A DNA stretch of 64,000 nt from Candidatus Sulfobium sp. (GTDB lineage: Bacteria > Nitrospirota > Thermodesulfovibrionia > Thermodesulfovibrionales > UBA6898): NCBI GenBank assembly GCA_037380845.1, contig JARRRI010000013.1:1-64000 (forward strand), written 5' to 3'. A program made the position numbers and the translations under genes. Each line of letters begins with the position of its first letter. Position 1 is the first letter of the stretch. Positions 3,828-51,411 of this stretch are shown piece by piece. Under the pieces are notes generated by a model that saw nothing but the letters and a program-made list of their open reading frames with translations, did no database searches and was not told the DNA's origin.

Positions 3828-3856
3828 TTGACACATAAAATGTTCAGCGGTACAAC
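3828..3856 (+). promoter_or_regulatory. Sigma70-type promoter upstream of the riboswitch
   Basis: TTGACA-17 nt-TACAAC. Confidence 0.6.
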
Positions 3857-3874
3857 AAAACTAAGAAGGGGTGC

Positions 3875-3960
3875 GATCCCGATAAAGCCAAACCCTCCGT
3901 GAGGAGGGGACAGAAAGCGGCGGGTCTTAATAGCTAAGATGGCCGAGCTGCCGAAGGTGA
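3875..3960 (+). ncRNA. Cyclic di-GMP-I (GEMM) riboswitch aptamer
   Basis: GATAAAGCCAAACCCTCC-GTGA-GGAGGGGACAGAAAGC...GCCGAGCTGCCGAA matches the GEMM-I layout (GNRA-capped P2, GAAA junction, 3' GCCGA). Confidence 0.85.
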
Positions 3961-3985
3961 GCCTTTGGTAAGCTCGGCCTTTTTA
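3941..3985 (+). terminator. Intrinsic terminator (riboswitch expression platform)
   Basis: GGCCGAGCT...AGCTCGGCC stem followed by a T-tract; overlaps the 3' strand of the aptamer. Confidence 0.8.
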
Positions 3986-4062
3986 TTGGATGTGAGGGGG
4001 GATGAGCAGAGTGCTCAGACCATCGTGACAAAGGTCGTTTTTAACAGCGAAAGGGGGACGTC

Positions 4063-4614
4063 ATGCTGGGCAGAATAGTAAGTGCAGCAGGCATAGTATT
4101 TGTATTTTTCATGGCAGCCGCTACGGCAGATATCGCGGAGGGGAAAGATTTTACGCACGGGACTGTGGTGGTCGCCATGGGAGGCGGCTCCATCGAAGAT
4201 GTGGCATTTCAAACCGGTCAGTCAGGGGACGCGACCTTCTCGTTTTTCGTCGGCTACGACAAAATGGGCAATCTGAAAGGATCTTTCTTTGTCAAGCGCG
4301 TTTTTCTCGCCTCCGGGGCCAGGGCCGCCATCAGCACCGAGATAACAGACCTCGCGGTGCAGCAGGGAGACTGCACCTGGGTGACGATGAGCGGCGTCGC
4401 CAGGTTCAAGGCGACCTGGGTACCCAAGCCTGTGCCAGACCACACATTCACTCTCGAAGCCTGGAACTGTGACAGTCTTGACGATGGTGTCGACATGATC
4501 TGGTTTGAGGTGAGACGTCCCAACGGCAGTTCAAGGCCGGCGCTCTCGCTTGAGGCCCCGACCGCCCTGAATGGCGGGAACGTCATGATACCGTACCCGT
4601 ACGATTTACCGTGA
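4063..4614 (+). CDS. Secreted hypothetical protein under riboswitch control
   Basis: 183-aa ORF with SD, signal peptide ending ATA, beta-rich sequence, two Cys. Confidence 0.7.
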   Translation: MLGRIVSAAGIVFVFFMAAATADIAEGKDFTHGTVVVAMGGGSIEDVAFQTGQSGDATFSFFVGYDKMGNLKGSFFVKRVFLASGARAAISTEITDLAVQQGDCTWVTMSGVARFKATWVPKPVPDHTFTLEAWNCDSLDDGVDMIWFEVRRPNGSSRPALSLEAPTALNGGNVMIPYPYDLP

Positions 4615-42573: not shown

Positions 42574-42588
42574 GGAGGTTTGGCTTCC

Positions 42589-42930
42589 ATGATTTCTCAA
42601 GCCGACAAGATAGAGGTCCTGAAGGTCATTGCCCACCCCTTAAGGATGCGGATACTCGAGGAACTCAGCAAAGGGGTGAAGTGCGTGAGCGACCTGGAAG
42701 AGTTTTTCGAAATCAGGCAGTCCAATATTTCACAACATCTTTCGCTGCTCAGGCGGCATGGTCTTATCGATTTTTACATTGACGGGAGACTCCGTTGTTA
42801 TTTTCTGAGGGAGCCCTTCATCCCCGATCTGCTGGAATTGCTGAGGAAAGATTACGAGGAGGACCTGCCTGCCCCGGCCTGCTGTCCCGTAACCAGGAGG
42901 GGGAAGTATCCGGGTGACAGGAGGAATTGA
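42589..42930 (+). CDS. ArsR/SmtB family transcriptional repressor
   Basis: LKVIAHPLRMRIL...QSNISQHLSLLR; Cys in KCVSDL, LRCY and C-terminal ACCP. Confidence 0.92.
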   Translation: MISQADKIEVLKVIAHPLRMRILEELSKGVKCVSDLEEFFEIRQSNISQHLSLLRRHGLIDFYIDGRLRCYFLREPFIPDLLELLRKDYEEDLPAPACCPVTRRGKYPGDRRN

Positions 42931-42985
42931 TAAACCTGTATTTGACAATTCAGGGAGCCGCTGTTCTTCCCCGGGAGGAGGAGAA

Positions 42986-43330
42986 ATGAAGAAAGAAATA
43001 GCCTTGTTTTTCTCTACGACACCATATAGTTTCGAAAACACCCACACCATTATGAGGATCGCCGACGCAGCCCTCAAAAAAGGTCATAAAGTCAGGCTCA
43101 TCGCGTCGGGAGACGGGGTTTTTTCGGTCGTGAAAGGCCAGGTGCCCAAGTCTCTCGCCGCGCTGGAAGACCTTGTCGAAAGGGGTCTCAAGGTGGACAT
43201 ATGAACCGGCTGCATGCAGGGTCGCGGTCTTGCGGCTGAAGACTCCATAGAGGGCGGGGAGATGAGTTCCCTGAAAGGTCTCCTGGACGTAATCGGGTCG
43301 AAACCGATATTTTTGAATTTCGGGATATAG
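42986..43330 (+). CDS. dsrE: DsrE/TusD-family sulfurtransferase with in-frame UGA (probable Sec73, UxxC)
   Basis: PYS...A.AAL.KGH.V...DGV motifs; UGA at 43202-43204 read through gives 41 more codons (TGCMQGRG...) ending 6 nt before the next gene. Confidence 0.85.
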
Positions 43331-43336
43331 GAGGAG

Positions 43337-43693
43337 ATGATGGGAGGCATCGGCATTGTCCTTAGAAGATCGCCTTACGGTTCTGTTGAGGCCGCTGAGG
43401 CCATAAGACATGCCCTCGGCGGGATAGGTGAAGGTTTTGACGTAAATCTCATGCTGATGGACGGAGGAGTCGAGGCCGCGCGAAAAAACCAGGACATCTC
43501 AGATACCGAATATCTGAGCGTTGAGGAAGGAATAAGAGACTGCCTGGATATGGGCGTAGCCGTATACGCGGAGAAAATTTCACTTGCAATGGCCGGTCTC
43601 TCTCCCGATAGCGCGGTGGAAGGAGTTGCGGCAGTAGATGAATCGGAGATAGCCGGGATGATTAAAGAGTCGGACACCACGATGATTTTCTAA
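43337..43693 (+). CDS. dsrF: DsrF/TusC-family protein
   Basis: RRSPYGS..A.EA...DGV and C-terminal ESDTTMIF. Confidence 0.8.
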   Translation: MMGGIGIVLRRSPYGSVEAAEAIRHALGGIGEGFDVNLMLMDGGVEAARKNQDISDTEYLSVEEGIRDCLDMGVAVYAEKISLAMAGLSPDSAVEGVAAVDESEIAGMIKESDTTMIF

Positions 43694-43714: not shown

Positions 43715-44002
43715 ATGGTAGTCCTTATAAAAAGTTCCCCGGACACTCCTGAAGGACAGAGAGGTGTCAGGATCGCGCGGGATATGTCGGCGGATATAGT
43801 TCTCCTGCAGAACGGAGTCTATTTTATTCAGGGGCAGAGGCTGGAAGACCTGGGAATCTATCGCGCGACATATGTGCTCGAGGATGACAGGAGATTGAGG
43901 GGACTGAAGCAGGCTGATGCCGACAAAAACATAAGAGACATCAGCTATGACGGCCTTGTCGACCTTATGGCGGAAAGCGACAAGGTAACAGGATTGTTTT
44001 AA
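43715..44002 (+). CDS. dsrH: DsrH/TusB-family protein
   Basis: IKSSP, DIVLLQNGVY, YVLEDD..LRG and ISYDGLVDL. Confidence 0.85.
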   Translation: MVVLIKSSPDTPEGQRGVRIARDMSADIVLLQNGVYFIQGQRLEDLGIYRATYVLEDDRRLRGLKQADADKNIRDISYDGLVDLMAESDKVTGLF

Positions 44003-44025: not shown

Positions 44026-45213
44026 ATGGCGAAAATACTTGTTTTGGGAGGCTCATTCGGCGGCCTTACCGCCGCGTTTGAACTGAAAAGACTTCTGGGA
44101 AAAAAGTCGGAAGTAACAGTAATGTCCGACGACGACAAATTCGTTTTCGTACCTTCGCTCCCCTGGCTTTCTCTGGGATGGAGAAAAGCCGGGGACATTA
44201 CCCTGCCGGTAAAGTCCATTCTGGAGAAGAGGGGCATATCCTTTCTTCATGAAAAGGCAAAAGGTATAGAACCGGACTCATCCAAGGTAGTTACGGAAAA
44301 AGGAGAGACACCTTACGACTACCTGGTCGTGGCGACCGGTCCCTACCTCGCGTTTGAAGAGGTACCGGGTCTGGGCCCGGAAAGAGGCCATACGGAATGC
44401 ATCTTTACCCTTGACCTGGCGGAGAAGGCGCATAAAGCCTGGGAGAGGTTTCTTGAAGAGCCCGGGCCCTTGGTCACAGGCTCTGTCCAGGGGGCCAGCT
44501 GCCTCGGGCCTCCCTATGAATACGCCTTTGAGGTAGACGGCGTCCTCCGGGAGCGGAAAATCAGGCACAAGGTTCCGATGGTATTCGTTACCTCAGAGCC
44601 CTATATCGGGCATTTCGGCATAGGGGGATTGAGAAATTCAAAGAGGTTGATGGAAGATGAATTCGCAAGGAGAGACATCAAGGTCGTCGCAAACGCGGTC
44701 ATCGAGGAGTTTACGCCGACGGAAGTGAAGCTGAAGGACGGCACGAATATCCCCTTCAAACTTGCCATGTTAGGCCCGGCGTTGAAAGGAGTGCCTGCCG
44801 TAGCCGACATCGGAAACCCGAGGGCCTTTATTCCGGTTGACGGCAAATATCGGCATGCGAAGTACAAAAACATCTTCAGCGTCGGCGTTGCCGTTGCGAT
44901 GGCGCCTCCTGAAAAAACGCCCGTGCCGACCGGCGTTCCGAAGACCGGGCATATGACGGTGACGATGGCAAAATCCGCCTCACGGGTCGTCGCCTCCGAC
45001 ATAACGGGCGGTGACGTACCTGAAGAAGAACCTTTGGGAGTCAAGTGTCTGATGGATATGGGCAACACAGCGGCGTACATGAGGGCAGATCCCGTTCTTC
45101 CGCCCAGGGAAGAGTCGGTCTTCGAGGAAGGCAGGCGTTTCCGGTGGGCGAAACTCGCATTCGAAAAATATTTCCTGTGGAAGATGAGAAACGGATTGAG
45201 TAACCTCCCCTAG
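44026..45213 (+). CDS. sqr: Sulfide:quinone oxidoreductase
   Basis: GGSFGG, YDYLVVATG, SCLGPPYE, PKTG, CLMDMG and C-terminal KLAFEKYFLWK helix. Confidence 0.85.
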   Translation: MAKILVLGGSFGGLTAAFELKRLLGKKSEVTVMSDDDKFVFVPSLPWLSLGWRKAGDITLPVKSILEKRGISFLHEKAKGIEPDSSKVVTEKGETPYDYLVVATGPYLAFEEVPGLGPERGHTECIFTLDLAEKAHKAWERFLEEPGPLVTGSVQGASCLGPPYEYAFEVDGVLRERKIRHKVPMVFVTSEPYIGHFGIGGLRNSKRLMEDEFARRDIKVVANAVIEEFTPTEVKLKDGTNIPFKLAMLGPALKGVPAVADIGNPRAFIPVDGKYRHAKYKNIFSVGVAVAMAPPEKTPVPTGVPKTGHMTVTMAKSASRVVASDITGGDVPEEEPLGVKCLMDMGNTAAYMRADPVLPPREESVFEEGRRFRWAKLAFEKYFLWKMRNGLSNLP

Positions 45214-46133: not shown

Positions 46134-46607
46134 ATGCTTATGAATGATAAACTCGACGAAATTATAGGAAGATACAGGGAAAAAAAGGGGAATATAATAT
46201 TCCTCCTGCAGGAAACCCAGGCCGCCTTCGGTTTTATACCGAGGGAAGCAGTCAATTTCTTCTCCGAAGAACTCGGCATCGCCCCCAGCCGCTTTTTCGG
46301 CATCGCCACGTTTTACTCCCAGTTCCGGCTCCACCCCGCCGGGAAAAACAGGATAACCGCCTGCTGCGGGACGGCCTGTCACGTCAAGGGCTCCGAGAAG
46401 ATAATCAGAAGTCTGAGGCGTGAGCTCCAGCTGCCCGAGGGGAACGACACAACAGCCGACGGGGAGTTCACACTTGAAGAGGTGGCCTGTCTCGGCACGT
46501 GCAGTTTCGCACCGGTCGTCCTTGTAAACGGAGACGTCCGCGGCAGGGCCAGTGCACAGAAAGTCACGAGGGAGATAGGTTCACTGAGGAAGAAGAATGA
46601 GGGATAA
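46134..46607 (+). CDS. NuoE/HydC-like 2Fe-2S subunit of formate dehydrogenase
   Basis: ATFYSQF, CGTACHVKG and CLGTC. Confidence 0.92.
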   Translation: MLMNDKLDEIIGRYREKKGNIIFLLQETQAAFGFIPREAVNFFSEELGIAPSRFFGIATFYSQFRLHPAGKNRITACCGTACHVKGSEKIIRSLRRELQLPEGNDTTADGEFTLEEVACLGTCSFAPVVLVNGDVRGRASAQKVTREIGSLRKKNEG

Positions 46608-48375
46608 GACGGTGATAAGGGTCTGCATGGGCCCGGCGGGCATAGCGGCAGGCGGCAAGGCCGTCCTCGAGGCGTTCAGGAGAGCCTTGTCGGAGGCTTC
46701 CGCAGAGGCAGACGTTGTGGAGAACTGTTCCTCGCACCAGGTGGGTTGCCTGGGACTCTGCGCACGGGACGTGCTGGTTGAGGTCCTGATGAACGGCGTG
46801 AAAACAGTCTATCAGTATGTGAAGCCCAATATTGTGGAGAGGATAGTGAAGGAGCACATCGTCGGGGGTATGCCCGTAGAGGAATGGAAAATCGACGACG
46901 CCTATGATTCCTTTTACGGAAAGCAGGTCAAGGTGGTGCTTCAAGACTGCGGCAGGGTCGATCCGGAGGATATCGAGTCGTACATCGGCATCGGCGGGTA
47001 TGAGGCGGTCCGCAGGGTACTTTACGCCTGGACGCCGGACGACGTGATCGGGGAGATAAAGTCTTCGGGCCTGAGGGGCCGCGGCGGCGCCGGATTTCCA
47101 ACGGGTCTTAAGTGGGAACTCGGGAGGAGAAGCAGCGGCGATGTCAAGTACATCATCTGCAATGCCGATGAAGGTGACCCCGGCGCCTTCATGGACAGGG
47201 CGGTCATAGAAGGGAACCCCCATTCGGTAATAGAGGGCATGATCATCGGCGCCTACGCCGTAGGGGCCCATAAGGGATACGTCTACATCAGGGCCGAATA
47301 TCCTCTGGCCGTAGAGAGGCTGCAGCTCGCGCTGGAGCAGGCGTCCCGGAAAGGCTTTCTGGGAAGCAGCGTCTTCGGCAGCTATTTCGATTTCGACATC
47401 GAGATCAAGCTGGGGGCGGGTGCCTTCGTATGCGGGGAAGAGACGGCTCTCATCGCGTCGATAGAAGGACAGAGAGGCATGCCGAGGTCGAAGCCGCCAT
47501 TCCCGGTCAACAAGGGATTATGGCAGAGGCCTACAGTAATCAACAACGTCGAGACCCTGGCAAACATAGCGTCCATCATCAGCCACGGGGCCGGCTGGTA
47601 CTCCTCTTACGGAACGGAGCGCTCCCGGGGGACGAAGGTCTTCGCCCTCACCGGGAAGATAAAGAATACGGGCCTCATAGAGGTCCCGATGGGCATTAGC
47701 ATGAGGGAGATAATCTACGATATAGGCGGAGGCATCGACGGAGACGGGGCGTTGAAGGCGGTGCAGACCGGCGGCCCCTCGGGAGGATGCATACCGGCCG
47801 GCATGGCCGACCTCAGTGTCGACTACGAGTCTCTCTCCAGGGCCGGTTCCATCGTGGGTTCGGGGGGGATGATCGTGCTCGACGAAAACGATTGCATGGT
47901 CAACATGGCAAAGTATTTCGTACAGTTCACACAGGCCGAATCGTGCGGAAAGTGTGTACCCTGCCGGGTGGGGACGAAGAGGCTGCTTGAGATCCTGGAC
48001 CGCATCACAAAAGGGCAGGGGAGGGAGGGCGATATCGAGCGCCTGGAGAGGCTGAGCAGGGGGGTGAAGGTCACTTCGCTCTGCGGGCTCGGCCAGACCG
48101 CGCCGAACCCGGTCCTCAGCAACCTCCGGTATTTCAGGGATGAATTCGAGGCGCATATCAGGGACAGGAAGTGCCCTGCAGGGGTATGCAGGGAACTCCT
48201 CACCTATCGCATCGTGGAAGAATCCTGCACCGGATGCGGCGCATGCCTGAGGGCCTGCCCCGCGGGCGCCATCAGCGGTGAAAAGAAGAAGCCGCACGTC
48301 ATAGACCCCGACATATGCATCAGGTGCGGGGCCTGTTTCGACGTGTGCAAATTTAAGTCGGTGGAGAAAGATTAG
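46597..48375 (+). CDS. NuoF/HydB-like FMN/NADH subunit with N-terminal 2Fe-2S-like and C-terminal 2x4Fe-4S domains
   Basis: GRGGAGFPTG, NADEGDPGAFMDR, GEETAL, GGPSGG, ESCGKCVPCR and two CxxCxxCxxxC. Confidence 0.93.
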   Translation: MRDKTVIRVCMGPAGIAAGGKAVLEAFRRALSEASAEADVVENCSSHQVGCLGLCARDVLVEVLMNGVKTVYQYVKPNIVERIVKEHIVGGMPVEEWKIDDAYDSFYGKQVKVVLQDCGRVDPEDIESYIGIGGYEAVRRVLYAWTPDDVIGEIKSSGLRGRGGAGFPTGLKWELGRRSSGDVKYIICNADEGDPGAFMDRAVIEGNPHSVIEGMIIGAYAVGAHKGYVYIRAEYPLAVERLQLALEQASRKGFLGSSVFGSYFDFDIEIKLGAGAFVCGEETALIASIEGQRGMPRSKPPFPVNKGLWQRPTVINNVETLANIASIISHGAGWYSSYGTERSRGTKVFALTGKIKNTGLIEVPMGISMREIIYDIGGGIDGDGALKAVQTGGPSGGCIPAGMADLSVDYESLSRAGSIVGSGGMIVLDENDCMVNMAKYFVQFTQAESCGKCVPCRVGTKRLLEILDRITKGQGREGDIERLERLSRGVKVTSLCGLGQTAPNPVLSNLRYFRDEFEAHIRDRKCPAGVCRELLTYRIVEESCTGCGACLRACPAGAISGEKKKPHVIDPDICIRCGACFDVCKFKSVEKD

Positions 48376-48376
48376 G

Positions 48377-51163
48377 ATGATAAAGCTGAAGATAGACGGA
48401 AGGGACGTAGAGGTCCCTGAAAATACAACGATCCTCCGGGCGGCAAAGATGCTCGATATCCCCGTGCCGACGCTCTGCGCCCATCCGAAGCTCACCCCGT
48501 TCGGGGGCTGCAGGATGTGCATAGTGGCGATAAAGGACATGCCGAAACCGGTGACGTCCTGCAATACCCTTGCGAGGGAAGGGATGGAGGTATCGACCTC
48601 TACCCCGGAAATAGAAGACCTGAGAAGGCTTATTCTCGAACTTATCCTCTCCGACCATCCCAATGATTGCATGGTCTGTGAGCAGGCCGGCAACTGCACA
48701 CTGCAGGAGCTTGCTTACGCCTACGGCATAAGGGAGAACGAGTTTGAAGGGGAGCGGAGGACATACGAGAAGAGGGACGGCAACCACTTCATAGAAAGGG
48801 ACCTGGAGAAGTGCATACTCTGCGGCAGGTGCGTAAAGGTCTGCGACGAGGTCCAGGGAGTGGAGGCCATAGACTTCGGTTACCGCGGCTTCCGGTCGAA
48901 AATATGCACCCCCTACGAAGACGACCTGGACTGCGAGTTTTGCGGACAATGCATCACGGTCTGTCCGACGGGCGCCCTTACCGGCAAACAGTGGCTTGGG
49001 AAGGGAAGGCCGGGTGAACTGAAAGAGGTGGATACGGTCTGTCCCTACTGCGGCACGGGCTGCAATATCACTGTCCAGACGAAACGCAATGAGATATCCA
49101 GGGTTATACCCAGAGAGAATACGTGGAACGAGGGATGGCTCTGTGTGAAGGGACGGTTCGGCTACAGGTTCGTAAACAGCCCGGACCGGCTTAAAAAACC
49201 GCTCATGCGAACCGCTCCCAAACCAGAAGTCGGAATGCAGAAGTTGGGAGAAGACTCCTCACAGCTTACTCCTGACTCCTCACTTTTCAGGGAAACGTCC
49301 TGGGAGGAGGCCCTTGACCATATCGCGTCGCGTCTGGGCGAGATCAGGGCAGCACACGGCCCTGATGCAATCGCCGGACTCTCCTCCGCCAGGTGCACCA
49401 ACGAGGAGAACTACGCATTCCAGAAATTCATGAGGGCCGCTGTGGGGACCAACAACGTAGACCACTGCGCACGGCTTTGACACTCGCCGACGGTGGCCGG
49501 GCTGGCCGCCATATTCGGCTCCGGGGCCATGACGAATTCGATCAGGGAGATCGAGGGGATGGATGTCATCTTCATCGTGGGTTCGAATACCAAGGAGACC
49601 CACCCTGTCATCGCAAACAGGATGATAAAGGCGTACCGCAGGGGCGCAAAGATCATAGTCGCCGACCCAAGGAGGGTGCCGATGGTGAAATTCGCCGAGG
49701 TATTTCTCAAGATGAGACCGGGCACCGACGCGGCCCTGCTCAACGGGATTGCCCATGTCATAGTTAAGGAGAATCTCCAGAACGACGAGTTCATAAGGGA
49801 AAAAACGGAGGGATTTGAGGAGTGGAAAAAGTCCCTGGAAGAGTTTGATCCCGGGAGCGTCGAGGAGATAACAGGGGTGCCGAAGGAGGATATCGTCATG
49901 GCCGCGAGAATCTACGGCGGCTCGCGGAGGGCCGGCATCTTCTACACCATGGGAATCACCCAGCATACCTGCGGGACCGACAACGTAAAGGCGGTGGCCA
50001 ACCTGGCGACGCTCACGGGGAATATCGGCCGCGAATCTACCGGCGTGAACCCTCTGAGGGGACAGAACAACGTGCAGGGCGCTACGGACGCGGCCTGCGT
50101 ACCCGACGTTTATCCCGGCTACCAGAAAGCAGACTCGCCTGAAGTAAGGAAGAAGTTCGAGGAGGCGTGGGGCAGGGCGCTGTCACCTTCCCCCGGCCTG
50201 ACGGCAACCCAGATGATAGACGCCGCTTCTGGCGGCGAAATAAAGGCGATGTACATCATGGGTGAAAACCCGGTCATCACCGACCCTAATATGAATCATA
50301 CCGTAAAGGCTTTGGGAAGCCTTGATTTTCTCGTGGTGCAGGACATCTTCATGACCGACACGGCACGTCTTGCGGACGTGGTGCTGCCGGCGGCATGCGC
50401 CTTCGAAAAGGACGGGACCTTTACGAACACCGAGAGAAAGGTGCAGCGGGTGAGACAGGCGGTCCTGCCGCCGGGAGAGGCCCGGGACGACCTGTCGATC
50501 ATTACCGCACTGTCGAAGCGACTGGGGTACCCGATGGAATACTCTTCTCCGGAAGAGGTGCTGAGTGAATTCGGCCGGCTCTGGCCCAATCTTGCGGGAA
50601 TTACGTACCGGCGTCTTGAAGAAGGGGGGCTTCAGTGGCCGTGCCCCTCCGAAGGGCATCCCGGGACCGGGTTTCTTTACAAAGACGGCTTCCCCAAAGG
50701 GAAGGTGCGTTTTGCACCGGTGGGGTTCTGTCCTCCTGCGGAGATTACGGACGACGAGTATCCTTTTATCCTCACTACCGGAAGAAATCTCTTCCAGTAT
50801 CATTCCGGCTCTATGACCAGGAGGGTCATGTCGATAGAAAGCCACGCCGGCGAGCCCTATGTGGAGGTCAGCGTCCCCGACGGGGAGCGGCTCGGAATAA
50901 GACAGGGAGACAAGGTGCGGGTATCATCCAGACGCGGCGGGATCACGGTCAAGGCCAGGGTCACACCGAGGGTCCCGGAAGGCACGGTCTTCATCCCGAT
51001 GCATTACCGTGAGGCCGCCGCCAACTTGATCACCAACGACGCCCTGGACCCGCACGTAAAGATACCGGAATTCAAGGTATGTGCGGTCAGGGTGGAACCG
51101 GTCGAAGAAGAAAGCTCTGAAAATCCTCCCCGGCTGGAGGCTTCGGGAATCCCTGAAAACTGA
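48377..51163 (+). CDS. fdhA: Mo/W-bisPGD formate dehydrogenase alpha subunit, selenocysteine-containing (Sec368)
   Basis: ORFs 48377..49480 and 49493..51163 are in frame across one UGA in DHCARL-U-HSPT; CPYCGTGC, LRGQNNVQG and PEFKVCAV. Confidence 0.95.
49492..49510 (+). promoter_or_regulatory. Bacterial SECIS hairpin of fdhA
   Basis: GGTGGCC-GGGCT-GGCCGCC starting 11 nt after the UGA, as in E. coli fdhF. Confidence 0.75.
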
Positions 51164-51411
51164 AGTTGGCCGCATACCGGCCACAGACATAAAAACCGGC
51201 TTTCTATCGGGTTGCAGGTAATTCCCGTGTGACTTCTTTTTCGATTTGAATGAGACGTCGAATGTGATAACATCATTTTATAGATTGGGAAAGTCTTCAG
51301 GGCACGGCAATTGTCAGACAACCGGATGCGGCATGCCGGATCAGCGGCGTCGGCCGCACTTATTGTAATTACAGAGGAATCCGGGTTGAAGAACCAGGGG
51401 AGGACTGTCCA

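Follow-up and report, generated by a model that had tools for sequence, protein, structure and literature searches.

A predicted selenocysteine-containing DsrE-like protein in a conserved DsrEFH-like operon of Nitrospirota

In Candidatus Sulfobium sp. (assembly GCA_037380845.1), a dsrE-like gene with an in-frame TGA codon lies in a 64,000-nucleotide stretch of DNA (contig JARRRI010000013.1, positions 1 to 64,000 of the forward strand), here called the window. This TGA, codon 73 of the gene, very probably encodes selenocysteine (Sec, U). The assignment is based on cysteine/Sec pairs among related proteins, purifying selection on the sequence after the TGA, a covarying hairpin and a complete set of Sec genes in the genome. 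As a whole, the data are best explained by a full-length, 114-residue selenoprotein of the DsrE/YchN superfamily, carrying a U73-x-x-C76 motif and presumably taking part in a sulfur relay, and we hold this explanation with considerable confidence. The elements of the gene are as follows.

42986-43330, + strand: predicted dsrE-like selenoprotein gene, 114 codons and a TAG stop, translated with TGA as U
43202-43204, + strand: UGA codon 73, read as Sec; the TGA is kept in related loci, with Cys in distant homologues
43211-43213, + strand: TGC codon of Cys76, the second residue of UxxC, invariant in alignment A1 (21 sequences)
42974-42983, + strand: Shine-Dalgarno-like GGAGGAGGAG, just 5' of the ATG at 42986, read from the sequence
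43220-43237, + strand: candidate selenocysteine insertion sequence (SECIS) stem-loop, arms 43220-43225 GGTCGC and 43232-43237 GCGGCT, loop 43226-43231 GGTCTT

Conservation of the TGA codon and of the sequence after it

Under the standard code (table 11), the open reading frame (ORF) 42914..43204 terminates at the TGA. Translation of 42986-43330 with TGA as U yields 114 residues, in which U73 lies within ..GLKVDI-U-TGC-MQGRGL.., with a TAG stop at 43328-43330; the next ORF begins at 43337, 6 nt past this stop. A first-pass annotation, made from the window sequence alone, had proposed that the frame continues for 41 codons to a DsrE of normal length (114 aa) ending 6 nt before dsrF, with the UGA as codon 73 in VDI-U-TGC, and both the frame and the coordinates were confirmed by translation. 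Met1 is invariant in alignment A1. The Pfam DsrE domain (PF02635) matches residues 3-104 and thus spans the TGA, scoring 56.8 bits against a gathering cut-off of 22.7 (E 3.2e-15). In random sequence, the chance of 41 open codons after a stop is about 0.14, i.e. (61/64)^41. Such a stretch is not rare by itself, and the evidence has to come from related sequences.

Related loci (n=110) were collected from the genomes of 60 relatives (30 loci) and from a species-representative genome collection (80 loci). All 110 carry TGA at the identical column, 103 as identified by pattern and seven, with variant neighbouring residues, by eye; it is this conservation, and not the length of the open frame, that exceeds chance. 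A six-frame search of the 60 relatives and of this genome returned 39 matches at E<=1e-18, two of them from this genome, with identities among the 39 of 44-95%. All 39 extend over residues 1-113/114 and each contains exactly one TGA. Weaker matches (E>=1e-11) are without a stop, cover only about residues 20-105 and belong to other DsrE-family paralogues. The scan of the genome collection confirmed 131 relatives and yielded the 80 loci. Their titles name Nitrospirota, Thermodesulfovibrionales, Dissulfurispiraceae or Candidatus Sulfobium; a few read 'bacterium' and one is a Chloroflexota metagenome-assembled genome.

Two subfamilies can be distinguished. Subfamily A (62 unique genes, including the window gene) reads VDI-U-TGC and subfamily B (28 unique genes) reads VYL-U-GGC, with 44-51% identity between the two. 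The UxxC motif is present in all 30 loci from the relatives' genomes. Among 83 complete unique genes, the true stop is TAG in 58, TAA in 21 and TGA in four. In a small sub-branch of subfamily A (loci L109, L110 and L111), the UxGC motif is followed by Phe-Gln-Ser and the sequence ends in ..FRG/A/N and a TGA; in these three loci, TGA serves as the putative Sec codon and apparently also, 40 codons further on, as the stop of the same gene.

The ratio of nonsynonymous to synonymous substitution rates (dN/dS) in the 41 codons downstream of the TGA is 0.095 in subfamily A and 0.074 in subfamily B, compared with 0.051 and 0.061, respectively, upstream. Pairs with saturated dS were dropped, leaving 863 of 1035 downstream pairs in A and 178 of 253 in B. 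These ratios indicate that the 41 codons after the TGA are under purifying selection. A lack of conservation in these codons, named in the first-pass annotation as an argument against Sec, was thus not observed.

Across the phylum, 88 of 301 sampled genomes gave a match at E<=1e-15. The TGA is present in 91 of the 97 matches, and all six matches that have none carry Cys at the same column. These Cys orthologues are full length. Four of the six read ..GLSVELCGTCL.. and have an identical gene order of ArsR-like, E, F-like, H-like and flavoprotein genes, while the other two read ..KVSLCLTT... In one same-phylum cluster with a Cys orthologue (L141, 2374-3083), two tandem copies of the DsrH-like gene are present, of which the second is broken by masked N bases.

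Distant homologues give a similar picture. Searched exhaustively with an HMMER profile, 1.84 billion representatives yielded 369 hits (E<=1e-3). Among the best 150 of these, 124 reach the TGA column, with Cys in 114/124 and CxxC in 96/124. The Cys/UGA pairs that the first-pass annotation had suggested looking for are therefore found both in these distant proteins and in the six same-phylum Cys forms. The other 26 of the best 150 stop short of the column, several of them exactly at it with 72-76 residues; judged by their end points, the latter are probably further truncated Sec forms. A word-index search with residues 70-114 alone, which needs shared 5-mers, returned no candidate, which means only that no close full-length homologue is present; the Cys forms emerged from the profile search. 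When the profile was aligned to PDB sequences, the U column fell on Cys78 of Allochromatium vinosum DsrE (2hy5_A; position counted by hand). The UGA is thus at the conserved Cys position of DsrE, as originally proposed, and the Cys76 singled out at the same time is the residue that is invariant across the 21 sequences of alignment A1.

Candidate SECIS element and Sec machinery

The hairpin was analysed in an alignment of 87 distinct UGA+48 segments. It begins 15 nt after the TGA, with a helix at UGA+18 to +35, and shows a near-invariant CGC-NNNNNN-GCG block at positions 22-24/31-33 (numbering starts at the U of UGA). In the 6-bp helix (19-24/31-36), 90.8% of cells are paired; shifting the 3' arm by 1-3 nt lowers this to 36-53%. 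Both-side changes occur in four of the six pairs (AU/UA/UG/GU; UA/GC/CG; CG/UA), and the covariation score of the helix was reached by 0/500 shuffles, although the covariation comes largely from the two subfamilies, so that independent events are fewer than cells. In loci L083 and L091, a synonymous CGC>CGT change is matched by GCG>ACG, and the innermost pair is kept at the cost of Ala>Thr.

Codon usage points in the same direction. The synonymous-codon entropy of R80 G81 L82 A83 (CGC GGT CTT GCG) averages 0.23 bit, compared with 1.44 for 77 other well-conserved degenerate codons (minimum 0.64). Subfamily B behaves likewise (0.40 vs 1.34). In addition, loop positions G26 and U27 are at least 90% conserved in both subfamilies. 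In E. coli fdhF, the loop bound by SelB carries GGUC, with G23 and U24 essential, one codon nearer to the UGA.

The first-pass annotation had drawn a hairpin in another register, GCAGGG-TCGCGG-TCTTGC at 43216-43233. These bases are present, but their pairing is not conserved (only 56.1% of cells in the 87 sequences; covariation 0.066 vs 0.074 in shuffles), and the register was rejected in favour of the helix 4 nt downstream. Its statement that the spacing equals that of the formate dehydrogenase alpha subunit gene (fdhA) in the same window holds for fdhA, where the hairpin starts 11 nt after the TGA, but not for the conserved dsrE hairpin, which starts at 15 nt. The fdhA gene occupies 48377-51283, with its Sec codon at 49478-49480 (residue 368, ..HCARL-U-HSPTV..); in Rfam, its hairpin is recognised by SECIS_3 with 39.6 bits (E 2.9e-8), short of that model's gathering score (63). 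NuoE/NuoF-like genes (46134-48375) precede fdhA. No Rfam family reached its gathering score near the dsrE-like gene.

The genome contains the genes needed for Sec synthesis and insertion, the presence of which the first-pass annotation had left to be confirmed. The genes selA (620.3 bits) and selB (331.6 bits) adjoin on contig C22 and score above cut-offs, as does selD (311.9 bits summed). A tRNA-Sec was found at 73 bits, with anticodon TCA according to ARAGORN. The selD gene (contig C20:72213-73058, + strand) itself has an in-frame TGA near its N-terminus (..SCAG-U-ASKF..), and selenophosphate synthetase would therefore be a selenoprotein in this organism. A comparison of the selD SECIS of this genome with the dsrE hairpin revealed no obvious common loop motif.

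Operon context and known relatives

The dsrE-like gene is followed by genes for DsrF-like and DsrH-like proteins and a sulfide:quinone reductase (SQR) homologue, and is preceded by a regulator gene.

42580-42930, + strand: ArsR/SmtB-type helix-turn-helix regulator, a possible persulfide sensor; Pfam HTH_5 E 3.5e-12
43337-43693, + strand: dsrF/tusC-like gene; Pfam DsrE/DsrF-like E 4.8e-12
43715-44002, + strand: dsrH/tusB-like gene; Pfam DsrH PF04077 E 2.3e-9
44026-45213, + strand: SQR homologue; A. ferrooxidans SQR 3t2y E 2.1e-97 over residues 1-392, Aquifex SQR 3hyv E 1.3e-96

The regulator scores 72.1 bits with NCBIfam HTH_metalloreg (cut-off 55), while the model of BigR, a sulfite/persulfide sensor, gives a sub-threshold 40.9 against a cut-off of 155. 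The sole PDB match of the DsrF-like product is A. vinosum DsrF (2hy5_B, E 6e-5). The DsrH-like product matches TM0979 (E 3.2e-5) and A. vinosum DsrH (E 0.01). Three cysteines of the SQR homologue, those of ...teCIft..., ...gasClgp... and ...vkClmd..., coincide in the alignment with cysteines of the solved enzyme. By tblastn, the F-like gene was detected in 107 of the other 109 loci and the H-like gene in 106. The regulator was detected in 88 of these loci and SQR in 73, many loci ending before the SQR gene. By this count, the order ArsR-like regulator, putative Sec-containing DsrE, DsrF-like, DsrH-like and SQR is conserved across Nitrospirota.

A second Sec-type dsrE is found in the same genome (contig C10:36350-36700, - strand; locus L137, ~3851-4201). 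This copy is a member of subfamily B (VYL-U-GGC), shares 50% identity with the window gene and has kept its ArsR-like, F-like and H-like neighbours. Contig C51 of the genome carries dsrA (549.9 bits) and dsrC, and contig C2 a second dsrC-like gene.

The closest solved sequence in the profile search against the PDB is E. coli YchN (1jx7, E 9.7e-7), followed by A. vinosum DsrE (2hy5_A, E 0.011). An AlphaFold2 (AF2) model of the Sec subunit (pLDDT 83.4, pTM 0.77) superposes on YchN with a TM-score of 0.86 (27% identity), on DsrE with 0.87 (root mean square deviation 1.8 A) and on TusD with 0.83, and also on a Sulfolobus DsrE/DsrF-like protein. Designer pentatricopeptide repeats headed a single-protein phmmer search of the PDB; they were set aside as spurious, being a sum of weak repeats of which none passes alone, and were not returned by the profile search. 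YchN, whose PDB entry is named 'hypothetical protein', contains LCKTC, which aligns with U-x-x-C so that its first Cys, not Sec, occupies the U column. In its CxxC-type motif, the Sec subunit thus resembles YchN rather than DsrE or TusD.

Similarity to A. vinosum DsrEFH (2hy5) and E. coli TusBCD (2d1p) extends to three adjacent genes, the products of which best match E, F and H, to the same fold, and to a reactive residue at the column of DsrE Cys78. There are also differences. Sec replaces Cys and is followed three residues on by a second Cys, where A. vinosum DsrE has Ala. The partners are SQR and an ArsR-type regulator instead of dsrAB/dsrC, to which DsrEFH is linked in oxidative Dsr clusters as described in PMC13293266. 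The same paper, dated 2026, describes DsrEFH type II, a divergent trio of sulfate-reducing and disproportionating Desulfobacterota and Nitrospirota with reductive dsrAB, which lies in synteny with tusA and yeeE/yedE and relies on Cys67. Like type II, the trio in the window is a divergent DsrEFH-like set in a genome with dsrA; unlike type II, it has no tusA or yedE beside it. A term search of PMC13293266 did not find the string 'selen'. An all-Cys cluster is present on contig C96 of this genome (L144, 3047-4460), comprising DsrH-like, DsrE-like (..ITACEACAEARGY..), DsrF-like and TusA (..RVCPYP..) genes, with the contig ending just after it. This H-E-F-TusA arrangement fits the type II synteny, and the genome holds both Cys and putative Sec relay types. 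Since the two are separate, the Sec trio looks like a further type beside DsrEFH type II.

A 'DsrE-like protein' family has been listed among predicted selenoproteins since 2005, with PF02635 and UxxC, from the Sargasso Sea (two sequences) and Desulfovibrio vulgaris, in tables of two catalogues (PMC1088965, PMC1794560), and it also appears in a table of a 2026 review (PMC13188914). That DsrE-like selenoproteins had been predicted before, as the first-pass annotation noted, is therefore correct. Compared by description, these proteins share with the window gene the PF02635 domain, a single Sec in UxxC, Cys homologues, a downstream hairpin and a purely bioinformatic prediction; the passages describing them mention no DsrF/DsrH neighbours, SQR or Nitrospirota. 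The literature searched yielded no description of a Sec-bearing DsrE in a DsrEFH-SQR operon. By these features, the window gene represents a large, systematically mis-annotated Nitrospirota branch of this known family of predicted selenoproteins.

Proposed function, alternatives and annotation

In the proposed mechanism, the stem-loop at 43220-43237 (loop GGUCUU), 15 nt past the UGA, would direct Sec decoding through SelA, SelB, SelD and tRNA-Sec. The Sec protein would then join the DsrF-like and DsrH-like products in a DsrEFH/TusBCD-like complex, the formation of which is favoured, though far from assured. Within it, the selenolate of U73 would accept sulfane sulfur as an Se-S-S(H) adduct from polysulfide or persulfide made by the presumably co-transcribed SQR, and Cys76 could resolve or release the adduct through a selenenylsulfide. 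The assignment of SQR as the sulfur donor is tentative, and its odds are put below even. The ArsR/BigR-like repressor may turn the operon on as sulfide or persulfide rises. We infer from this scheme that the protein functions as a selenium-based sulfane-sulfur carrier. A broader suggestion, put forward with reserve, is that Thermodesulfovibrionia and related Nitrospirota possess a selenium-dependent DsrEFH-like relay with selenium as the carrier atom, a third type in addition to canonical type I and to type II, tied to SQR under a persulfide-sensing repressor.

Every gene caller ends the gene at the TGA, and coverage of the query is only 61-63% in each of the 120 best database hits, as if the TGA were a real stop that leaves a 72-residue fragment or pseudogene, with a downstream frame due to chance or to a separate small gene. 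A 38-aa downstream piece has been called as a protein of its own (P0212), and the chance of an open stretch of this length, as given above, is not small. Nevertheless, this explanation is extremely improbable in view of a TGA kept in every one of the 110 loci down to 44% identity, downstream dN/dS of 0.07-0.10, a Pfam domain that crosses the codon and full-length Cys orthologues; a 72-residue product would also lose three secondary-structure elements of the AF2 model. Decoding of the UGA as another residue, either Cys or Trp by near-cognate reading or through a different genetic code, would agree with the Cys found at this position in homologues, and in other systems Cys is known to be inserted at Sec codons when selenium is scarce. 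It too is very unlikely. This genome uses TGA as an ordinary stop, seen at the end of the upstream regulator gene, which indicates the standard code; the Sec machinery is complete and a conserved hairpin lies at SECIS distance; and TGC or TGT, although one mutation away, occurs in 0/110 loci.

A more serious alternative accepts Sec at codon 73 and concerns the function. The product may be a YchN-type UxxC redox protein, such as a selenol/thiol oxidoreductase or a persulfide/polysulfide reductase forming Se-S with Cys76, rather than a persulfide carrier that feeds DsrC or TusA. The closer match to YchN than to DsrE in the PDB search, the invariance of Cys76, the frequency of CxxC among distant homologues and the Ala at this place in A. 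vinosum DsrE all favour such a protein. Further, the DsrE-like family is grouped with thiol-oxidoreductase-like UxxC proteins in the selenoprotein catalogues (PMC1088965, PMC1794560). However, the regular succession of DsrF-like and DsrH-like genes after the Sec gene points to a hetero-oligomeric carrier, and the U column is that of the proven sulfur-binding Cys of DsrE. A purely redox role is considered unlikely, though it is a serious contender, and redox and carrier roles are not mutually exclusive.

Several observations speak against the proposal of a Sec-dependent carrier in a DsrEFH-like relay. At the level of decoding, no Rfam SECIS family matches the hairpin at E<=10, the only match being a chance 14.9-bit viral pseudoknot. 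The 59-nt region 43202-43260 folds no better than shuffled sequences (z 0.03, single-sequence folding), and the hairpin has only 6 bp, of which three hardly vary. At the level of function, the first-pass description of a 'complete DsrEFH trio' holds for Pfam families, but the three products fall far below the NCBIfam equivalog cut-offs (in bits: TusD TIGR03012 16.4 vs 89.25, TusC TIGR03010 28.8 vs 94.15, TusB TIGR03011 41.9 vs 49.2) and the neighbour is SQR, not dsrAB/dsrC, which are on contigs other than that of the trio. The 95-residue DsrH-like product is without any cysteine, where A. vinosum DsrH has a conserved Cys, Cys20. Downstream of the second Sec-type copy, the match to SQR is limited to its first 22 residues (90.9% identity), and the SQR gene there looks as if it had been truncated or replaced. 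SQR is thus not an obligate partner.

The first-pass annotation had also anticipated that automated annotation would call the gene as truncated. This is borne out by the low coverage of all 120 best database hits, 107 of which are exactly 72 aa long. Gene callers shorten the gene throughout the phylum, so that the carrier appears to be missing. According to a 2024 survey (PMC11033732), the majority of Thermodesulfovibrionia 'possess dsrFH, but no dsrE', and truncation of the database entries at 72 residues is probably the explanation; reading the UGA as Sec would restore the missing E subunit. The presence or absence of DsrEFH has been used to separate sulfur oxidisers from sulfate reducers, according to PMC10591310, and a truncated dsrE therefore matters for such classification. 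If a third, selenium-dependent relay exists, the lack of dsrE reported for this class would be an annotation artefact, and these 'sulfate reducers' would oxidise or detoxify sulfide through an Se-S-S intermediate. A selenolate at a DsrE-type sulfur-binding position beside SQR would also represent a testable use of selenium in sulfane-sulfur transfer, as distinct from classical redox catalysis.

Short members of the DsrE family are also found elsewhere. Clusters P0142, P0162, P0183 and P0254 have members of 75-98 residues that end at or just before the active-site column, and one such cluster is named from Candidatus Rokubacteria. These clusters are probably more Sec forms, outside Nitrospirota. 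Elsewhere in the window, a c-di-GMP-I-GGC riboswitch aptamer was detected at 3878-3956 on the + strand (RF03167, 64.9 bits vs a gathering score of 59).

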